Positions 22,101-22,783 of a stretch of DNA of 64,000 nt are shown here, piece after piece; within the stretch, counting starts at the first letter, position 1, and each line of letters begins with the position of its first letter. The notes under the pieces are model-generated. The model searched no databases. It saw only the letters and a list, made by a program, of their open reading frames with translations, and was not told where the DNA came from. The translations under genes were made by a program, and so were the position numbers. Source of the stretch: Dendrobates tinctorius (taxonomy: Eukaryota); NCBI RefSeq assembly GCF_039654945.1, contig NW_027361684.1:75206001-75270000 (forward strand), given 5' to 3'.

Positions 22101-22783
22101 TCTATTTGTCGGTCTCGGGGAATGGGAGAATTGTAAGCCACCATGGGAAATGGCAGCAGGAGAGACAGTGTCAGAATCCTGAATCCAGGTTTCCGTGAGG
22201 GCCAACAAATTCAGAGAGTTTTTCAGAAAGTAATTGTGTAGGAAAGGAAGCTTGTTGCATACAGACCGTGGATTCCAAAGGGCACAATTGAAAGAAGGAG
22301 ATGAAGGAGTGCAAGTGATATTAGTAAGATTATTAAGGTTTCGATGTGAGGTAGGGTAGGGGTTGAGGTTGGGGGATGGTGGACCGGGGTTGGGGGAGAT
22401 GTCCCCTGAAATCAGTAGGAGCAGGAAGATAAAGAGCAAGTAGTTTTTGGAATTGTATGAAGATTTTATGTGCAGTGTGTTTGGGCAAGATGGGCTGAGG
22501 CTTTTTAAGAAGGTGAGAAGTGCATGGGAGCTGTACATGGGAGAAGCAAAGAGAGAGGAGCTGATGTATATGAGTCGTGATGGAGGGGGGATTGGTCGGT
22601 GAAAGTGGATTGCAAGAGAACATAGGAGGATAGGAATAAAGCACATGGTTAAAAGGGACAGCAGAGTGTGGGTTACCTGACTCCTGTCCTGACTAACTGC
22701 CATGTAATAACTGCTGTATCCCGACGCTTATCTTCGTGACGCTTTGCTTCTGTGATGCGTGCACCCCCACATGCGTGCACCCC
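19182..22783 (-). mobile_element. Near full-length L2 LINE
   Basis: Long APE-RT ORF; 3' end TGTAAAGCGCTGCGGAATATGTTGGCGCTATATAAATAAA plus (ATT)n tail at 19182-19206. Confidence 0.96.
19617..22703 (-). CDS. L2 ORF: leader + 2A-like motif + APE endonuclease + RT (1028 aa; premature stop, natural end 19482)
   Basis: GDISPNPGP at aa 100-108; [37 protein letters not shown]; frame continues past the TGA as LKDFSRAAPILWNALP...LKTHLF. Confidence 0.92.

Follow-up and report, generated by a model that had tools for sequence, protein, structure and literature searches.

2A-like peptides occur in single-ORF LINEs, many of them without the supposedly key glutamate, and the reason for their presence has been open since 2013. 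The closest described systems are the L2 elements of Xenopus tropicalis, in which 2A-like peptides correlate with a single ORF (Odon 2013, PMC3708506); four Xenopus peptides ending in GD[IV]SPNPGP, those of L2-2_XT, L2-3_XT, L2-4_XT and CR1-L2-1_XT, are tabulated with their activity given as N/A (Rao 2025, PMC12338488, supplement 2). Trypanosome L1Tc/Ingi elements, which belong to another clade, are likewise of the single-ORF APE type with a 2A before APE, for which down-regulation of the enzyme has been proposed, and their canonical DIEQNPGP was shown to be active (PMC3708506, PMC3894237). In sea-urchin NLR proteins, which are host immune proteins, one 26-residue peptide with the canonical E is both signal and 2A, the uncut product entering the secretory path and the skipped one remaining in the cytosol (Roulston 2016, PMC4981915). 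Rodent L1 elements have monomer arrays, i.e., tandem 5' units with transcription signals, of ~200 bp in mouse and ~650 bp in rat (Boissinot and Sookdeo 2016, PMC5381506).

We analysed a window of 64,000 nucleotides of Dendrobates tinctorius DNA. Its minus strand contains, at 19182..22902, a copy of an L2-clade LINE (family A) that is 99.7% identical to another copy over 3513 nt. The copy is 5'-truncated within its last promoter unit, where it begins with an A-tract (22885..22902) that is internal to each tandem 5' unit in longer copies, and it ends with an (ATT)n tail (19182..19206). A minus-strand frame of 1036 open codons extends from 22727 to 19617, and its first ATG, at 22703, gives 1028 residues, compared with 1074 aa in intact copies; a one-codon gap and a premature stop (19617..19619) set the copy in the window apart from these. 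A Pfam search found in this single ORF an APE endonuclease domain (21672..22292; PF03372, Exo_endo_phos, E=7.4e-9) followed by a reverse transcriptase domain (20082..20840; PF00078, RVT_1, E=1.5e-36). Among the neighbouring sequences are a separate, divergent and frameshifted APE-RT LINE that looks CR1-like, on the plus strand directly downstream of the L2 tail (15057-18388), a GC-rich, palindromic-looking (MITE-like) element 1 kb upstream of the copy (23690-24100), and minisatellite arrays at 606-2383, 47468-48200 and 56189-57098, with periods of 24-69 nt and larger.

The ATG at 22703 opens a leader of 108 codons, which extends to 22380 in frame with APE and RVT_1 and has its G107|P108 site at 22383/22382, in agreement with the 107 aa before G|P that the preliminary description had counted. 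The 2A-like core, GDISPNPG|P (22380..22406, minus strand), has S in place of the canonical E, again as described, and thus does not match D[V/I]ExNPGP. At the composition of the ORF, a D[IV]xxNPGP motif is expected by chance within 140 residues with a probability of ~4e-6. A six-frame scan of the window found one other match, in a decayed relative at ~49.5 kb. This is a copy of a second family, family B, on the plus strand (49289-50156 and 51109-51492), which is interrupted by ~950 nt of other sequence and has its own GDISPNPGP at ~49500-49526.

The signal-peptide-like stretch claimed for the start of the leader was found again as a hydrophobic, signal-peptide- or anchor-like segment at residues 14-32 (22608..22664, minus strand), with a 19-residue Kyte-Doolittle (KD) mean of 2.51, the best window of the APE-RT body reaching 1.31. 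AlphaFold, run on an alignment of 68 sequences, predicted the leader with low-to-moderate confidence as three helices (residues 8-33, with pLDDT ~70, 58-68 and 86-98) joined by low-confidence linkers. The middle helix (22503..22538, minus strand) contains M56, a possible second start, and fits YxxxxL-phi, the pattern of eIF4E-binding motifs. The last one is the Leu-rich helix of the 2A-like peptide (22410..22445, minus strand); it has 6 Leu at positions -19..-10 and ends ~10 residues before the skip site, as in canonical 2A. The APE fold starts at about residue 139 (first strand, residues 139-143), with pLDDT >90 from about residue 141. The motif had been placed directly upstream of APE: it is indeed upstream and in the same frame, but does not adjoin the domain, as a linker of ~30 residues lies between G|P and the APE fold.

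Much of this is already published: the motif together with its E-to-S form, the L2 clade, and the single ORF without ORF1 (Odon 2013, PMC3708506; PMC12338488). That 2A-like motifs stand before APE in some non-LTR elements, as the preliminary description had stated, is in print for the GD[IV]SPNPGP of X. tropicalis L2. The Xenopus elements belong to the same clade and have the 2A in the same place before APE (PMC3708506), and the peptide KS-x-x-HL...LLLL-x-[AS]GD[IV]SPNPGP, with S at the E position, is common to both (PMC12338488, PMC3708506). They differ in that their 2A lies 40-80 residues from the start, compared with 107 here, and the available part of their description mentions no N-terminal hydrophobic segment and describes no 5' promoter array (PMC3708506). 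With the sea-urchin NLR, the frog L2 would share a dual-targeting logic (PMC4981915); unlike in the NLR, its signal-like segment and its 2A are 55 residues apart and precede a retrotransposon enzyme. In the open literature (most subscription journals, theses and Repbase reports lie outside this scope) we found no signal-like leader as a recurrent partner of 2A in a LINE, no LINE signal leader among papers on eIF4E motifs and LINEs either, and no promoter array in L2, the only precedent being L1. A full-text search for DISPNPGP returned 0 papers; since this peptide is present in supplements, text searches miss such peptides.

Published tests of 2A-like peptides with S in place of E are divided as to skipping. 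Position 14 is a nearly invariant E in viruses, and this E stacks on rRNA (PNAS 2026, PMC12846837). Two Nematostella E-to-S peptides tested in reticulocyte lysate were both inactive (Odon 2013, PMC3708506). A preprint screen includes 21 E-to-S peptides, which we found via six S-containing octamers (Snell and Matreyek, PMC13405545, supplement file 3). By our own count of its classes, which are SVM calls with 86% on training samples, the 8 peptides with at least four Leu comprise 5 skipping, 1 fall-off and 2 non-skipping with reduced protein, and all 13 with fewer than four Leu are plain non-skipping. Most retrotransposon 2A-like peptides in this screen reduce protein. The window peptide is 16/20 identical to a peptide classed there as skipping, and 13/20 identical to one that is the same as the peptide of the Bombina L2 homolog P0082 and is classed as non-skipping with reduced protein. 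By analogy, the window motif is likely to affect translation in some way, while the chances of a true skip at G107|P108 would be about even.

Family A is a young, high-copy and recently active L2 family that has undergone mass amplification. A 651-nt query of the 6.36-Gb genome gave, at first look, 2446 candidate matches, the best 40 of the 2446 being all 99-100% identical. In a protein search, 17 of the first 30 matches listed had the full 1082-codon open frame. Among ten long loci, the ORF was intact (1074 aa) in four and broken in two, and in the remaining four it extended past the end of the sequence examined. The copies are dispersed and variably 5'-truncated, with a short tandem-repeat 3' tail. 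The nearest named proteins, from dendrobatid frogs, are 94-97% identical; a likeness of the RT to L2-3_XT and L2-4_XT was judged by eye, the 80-row RT tree described below containing no named reference elements. With this many full open frames, functional enzyme must be getting into the nucleus even though its N-terminus is hydrophobic.

The preliminary description had also stated that no ORF1 is visible upstream. This cannot be read from the window itself, because the copy is 5'-truncated in the A-tract at ~22902, but it holds for longer copies, where a higher-order tandem array is found upstream of the leader in place of ORF1. Each 5' unit (at least 556 nt) consists of the A-tract, one TATA-like box (TATAAAT, at 22799..22805 of the minus strand in the window copy) and the same ATG, after which come 98-nt repeats and, finally, a spacer. 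In upstream units this ATG reads M-A-Q-N-stop, and only the ATG of the last unit opens the leader. No Met-started frame longer than 87 aa was found in the 5' arrays, the longest ones being 73-87 aa across three arrays. One copy was traced across 15 upstream units to its 5' end at TATA+32, and an ORF1 beyond the promoter array was rejected for this copy; a second array, of >25 kb, was traced short of its end. Instead of a normal ORF1 with initiation downstream of the motif, we thus found no ORF1 and a first usable AUG upstream of the motif. At two sites (L036/L111 and L040/L112/L114) the 5' promoter unit has been amplified in place over ~13 kb and >25 kb, respectively, giving a satellite-like array on a LINE. 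Unlike the rodent L1 arrays, the frog array belongs to an L2 element, has 98-bp repeats nested in units of at least 556 bp, and carries a TATA box and a start codon in each unit.

The 5' ends of the copies suggest a transcription start in these units. The 5' end was mapped in 44 distinct copies; 17 of these ends lay within the promoter part (181 nt), 6 of them at TATA+28..35 (binomial 3.5e-4 for end clustering in an 11-nt window in these first 44 copies). Among 14 held-out copies, 4 of 7 promoter-part ends were at TATA+29..32; two of these four (L125 and L139) belong to the final unit and lie 73 nt upstream of the main ATG. Pooling all 58 copies, which had been chosen by similarity to the 5' region and of which the majority end in ordinary truncations, 10 of 24 promoter-part ends were at TATA+25..35. 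This clustering puts the putative start at TATA+28 to +32, or 22773..22777 on the minus strand of the window. Each 5' unit would then be a promoter, and the array would renew the promoter that is lost in each round. The shortest transcript would have only one AUG before that of the leader, placed ~5 nt from the inferred cap and opening a frame of 14 codons and a stop (22728..22772, minus strand). The start codon of the leader and its codons 1-9 (22677..22703, minus strand) lie within a 42-nt block shared by families A and B, which ends with CAG|GTAA. In upstream units of both families, a branch-point-like motif and a pyrimidine tract are followed by TCTCTTCATACAG|GTA ~38-40 nt past the ATG (L037:5640-5680, L071:800-845); TCTCTTCATACAG|GTA can be read there as an acceptor and as a donor.

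Family B, an older family of the same genome (32 loci examined), has the same 5' layout, with a unit of 503 nt in L071 and a TATA-like motif at the matching position. Its leader, of 119 codons in frame, starts with MAVRQGRRQV and contains a hydrophobic segment ending in HxHRP, the sequence MYSTHALF and GDI[AS]PNPGP, with mostly A at the E position; several copies are broken or truncated in the leader. The 42-nt block around the start is 86-88% identical between A and B in most copies. The hydrophobic segments of the two families are identical at 7/23 positions and differ by an in-frame length change of 11 codons, and the N-region before them is net neutral in family A and strongly basic, but 25 residues long, in family B. 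In eight frog homologs, 7-9 of the 9 residues of the 2A core are identical, NPG|P being invariant, compared with 28-69/91 in APE, 5-13/29 in the post-2A linker and 0-7/23 in the hydrophobic segment. The Leptobrachium (P0004) and Bombina (P0082) proteins likewise begin with a hydrophobic run. On internal branches of family B, the hydrophobic segment had a dN/dS of 0.61 (from 12 N and 6 S changes), against 0.26 in APE and 0.30 in residues 45-65, and residues 10-26 reached 1.17, all on small counts; the value for residues 66-148 was set aside as biased, because the copies had been chosen with a query covering these residues. The 2A motif is thus conserved across frog families, and the hydrophobic segment has retained its character and not its sequence.

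We extended the comparison to 369 proteins. An APE match was present in 356; in 58 of these it fell short of the domain start, and they were excluded, leaving 110 with a 2A-like motif before APE and 188 without. The E position of the 110 was occupied by S in 53, E in 25, N in 9, A in 7, Q in 6, H in 5 and other residues in 5. Starts were those of the gene callers, and some frog entries are chimeric gene models. Taking the 75 motif-bearing proteins with a Met start 70-140 residues before the site, we obtained 32 clusters at 55% APE identity, one of which contains Pocillopora proteins. In 30 of these the N-terminus is hydrophobic, with a KD mean of 2.0 or more over 12 residues within the first 45, compared with 18/58 control clusters, a few of which carry variant motifs; the Fisher value of 3e-9 for this difference is overstated because clusters are related. 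When composition was shuffled within leaders, p<0.05 was reached by 18/32 motif-bearing and 19/58 control clusters. In an RT tree with 80 ingroup rows, the segment was found in 35 of the 42 rows with the motif and in 12 of the 38 without it; most motif-bearing rows fell in one clade and the others at several separate places.

The YxxxxL-phi pattern showed a different distribution. In 2A-bearing relatives it was not above background (5.0/39 clusters, compared with 5.7 expected), and in non-dendrobatid frogs the Y of the M56 helix is F, M or L. In contrast, 2A-less L2-like ORFs had it before APE in 24.3/63 clusters, compared with 6.3 expected, e.g., as YDRQFLL, in many cases between a signal-like segment and RGxRGG (P0022, P0024, P0025, P0032, P0120, P0146, P0217, P0308, P0321, P0328, P0341, P0344 and others). 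Residues 31-58 of P0024 gave a weak Pfam eIF_4EBP match (E=0.074). In 2A-less ORFs the pattern is possibly an alternative translation-control module. We also noted that the N-terminal part of one eIF4E isoform (P0380) is aberrant; the motif-binding surface is presumably missing from it.

The reading that we prefer, while giving it slightly less than an even chance, is that a signal and a leaky StopGo together throttle and sort APE-RT. The N-terminal hydrophobic segment would likely act as an ER-targeting signal, and the 2A-like peptide would likely pause the ribosome and, in some of the passages, make it skip the Gly-Pro bond. Free APE-RT would result from skipping, while unskipped or dropped products would end up in the ER or be degraded, the uncut chain carrying APE-RT towards the ER lumen if the segment engages SRP. 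When the ribosome is at G107, the segment is 75 residues behind. This distance exceeds the length of the ribosome exit tunnel, so the segment is outside it and SRP engagement would already be possible. Such a gate accords with the absence of ORF1, the AUG upstream of the motif, the conserved motif, frame and segment, and the recent amplification; engagement of SRP and the translocon, the occurrence and efficiency of skipping, and a role as throttle would be its predicted components. Leaky skipping accords with the enzyme down-regulation proposed for 2A (PMC3894237) and with the dual targeting of the sea-urchin NLR (PMC4981915). With a short signal-anchor-2A leader, the downstream protein was left in the cytosol and nucleus, fusions that remained uncut were directed to the ER, and an upstream signal can itself inhibit 2A (PMC2978324). 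Several findings speak against the gate: the S (mostly A in family B) instead of E, the two inactive Nematostella peptides and the non-skipping one shared with Bombina, the lack of net positive charge in the N-region of family A, the weak selection on the hydrophobic segment in family B, the shuffle test with only 18/32 clusters at p<0.05, and the presence of the segment in 12 of the 38 motif-less rows. The recurrence of signal plus 2A is also weakened as an argument by the many clusters that fall in one clade and are not independent.

Because the family is plainly active, either skipping, initiation at M56 or stop-transfer must set its enzyme free, or else the segment is no signal. It is rather unlikely that the motif stalls ribosomes and lowers output without skipping, the working enzyme being the uncut protein or one started at M56 by leaky scanning. 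Stalling would agree with the inactivity of E-to-S peptides in reticulocyte lysate (PMC3708506) and, in the preprint screen, with the reduced protein of the non-skipping peptide matching Bombina and of most retrotransposon peptides (PMC13405545), but the invariance of NPG|P in the eight frog homologs is what is expected if the skip site matters. A start at M56 is favoured by the T at -3 of the first AUG of family A and by the retention of M56 in families A and B and in Phyllobates, with a Met nearby in Leptobrachium; however, M56 has a weak context and is absent from the Bombina and Gastrophryne proteins, and in family B the first AUG is flanked by A at -3 and by G at +4. We consider it improbable that the 2A-like peptide alone is functional and the hydrophobic stretch a by-product of a pyrimidine-rich sense strand that was never a signal. 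The low identity of the segment between families (7/23) and to other frogs (3-5/23), its weak dN/dS and a shuffle test passed by 18/32 clusters only fit with this, but hydrophobicity is concentrated N-terminally and is low mid-leader in nearly all motif-bearing leaders surveyed, and between A and B the segment was retained through sequence turnover and the 11-codon length change.

Quite improbable, too, is an arrangement in which two hydrophobic segments set the topology, the first targeting the ER and the Leu-rich helix stopping transfer, with APE-RT tethered at the cytosolic face. Two hydrophobic helices do surround a polar loop of ~55 residues, a layout that recurs across the surveyed leaders; against this, the Leu helix has only ~12 residues (KD19 1.54), the P0019, P0135 and P0155 groups bear the motif without poly-Leu, the invariant NPGP would be unexplained, and a tethered enzyme must still get to the nucleus. 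An explanation at the RNA level appears very improbable: a donor after codon 9 and an acceptor in the poly-Leu codons would splice out the leader to give an out-of-frame, inactive message that throttles output. Candidate sites are present on the minus strand (donor-like at 22676-22703, acceptor-like at 22405-22445), and joining them is out of frame with APE; the Leu-rich helix codons with TTTCAG|G resemble a 3' splice site, CAG|GTAA closes the 42-nt block conserved between families, and in the gene models P0001 and P0093 the junction with foreign sequence falls precisely on the Gly of GDISPNPGP. However, NPGP is conserved at the protein level, its codons showing synonymous changes, and none of 45 family-A copies examined at the donor is a spliced form, genomic copies retaining the segment. 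No donor-acceptor joint was seen in the contigs, from 4 of 22 runs with guessed or unknown RNA status, that aligned to L037:5500-8200. Contigs of X1, X2 and X17 stop at the donor-like site; as X1 and X2 come from one study and X17 is of uncertain kind, we draw no conclusion from contig ends.

The suggestion that the leader takes over the function of ORF1 found no support. The leader has two or three predicted helices, is poorly conserved and contains no domain recognised by Pfam, with no match above noise to RNA-binding, coiled-coil, zinc or esterase domains. The ESM Atlas returned only unnamed matches <0.8 for the leaders of the window copy and P0024, and a PDB sequence search with P0024 gave no match. 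Having no ORF1-like domain, the leader takes the place of ORF1 by its position alone.

Should nothing beyond the published part hold, leaving a frog L2 with a putative 2A-like motif, the finding is ordinary. The conserved signal-like segment upstream would offer a reason for the 2A, as the enzyme would enter the ER without a skip. A wider proposal, possible but doubtful at present, is that much of the L2 clade, across hosts ranging from corals to frogs, sends its sole protein via the secretory pathway, the signal docking the translating ribosome and the element's own RNA on the ER and StopGo gating the escape of RT to the cytosol. If this were true, 2A-less relatives would use a parallel module, made of a signal and an eIF4E-binding-like motif, and the activity of the family would prove that E-to-S StopGo motifs work in vivo. 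As the family is young and rich in intact copies, with a start site that is defined and a promoter unit that can be cloned, the question is directly testable in a vertebrate element.
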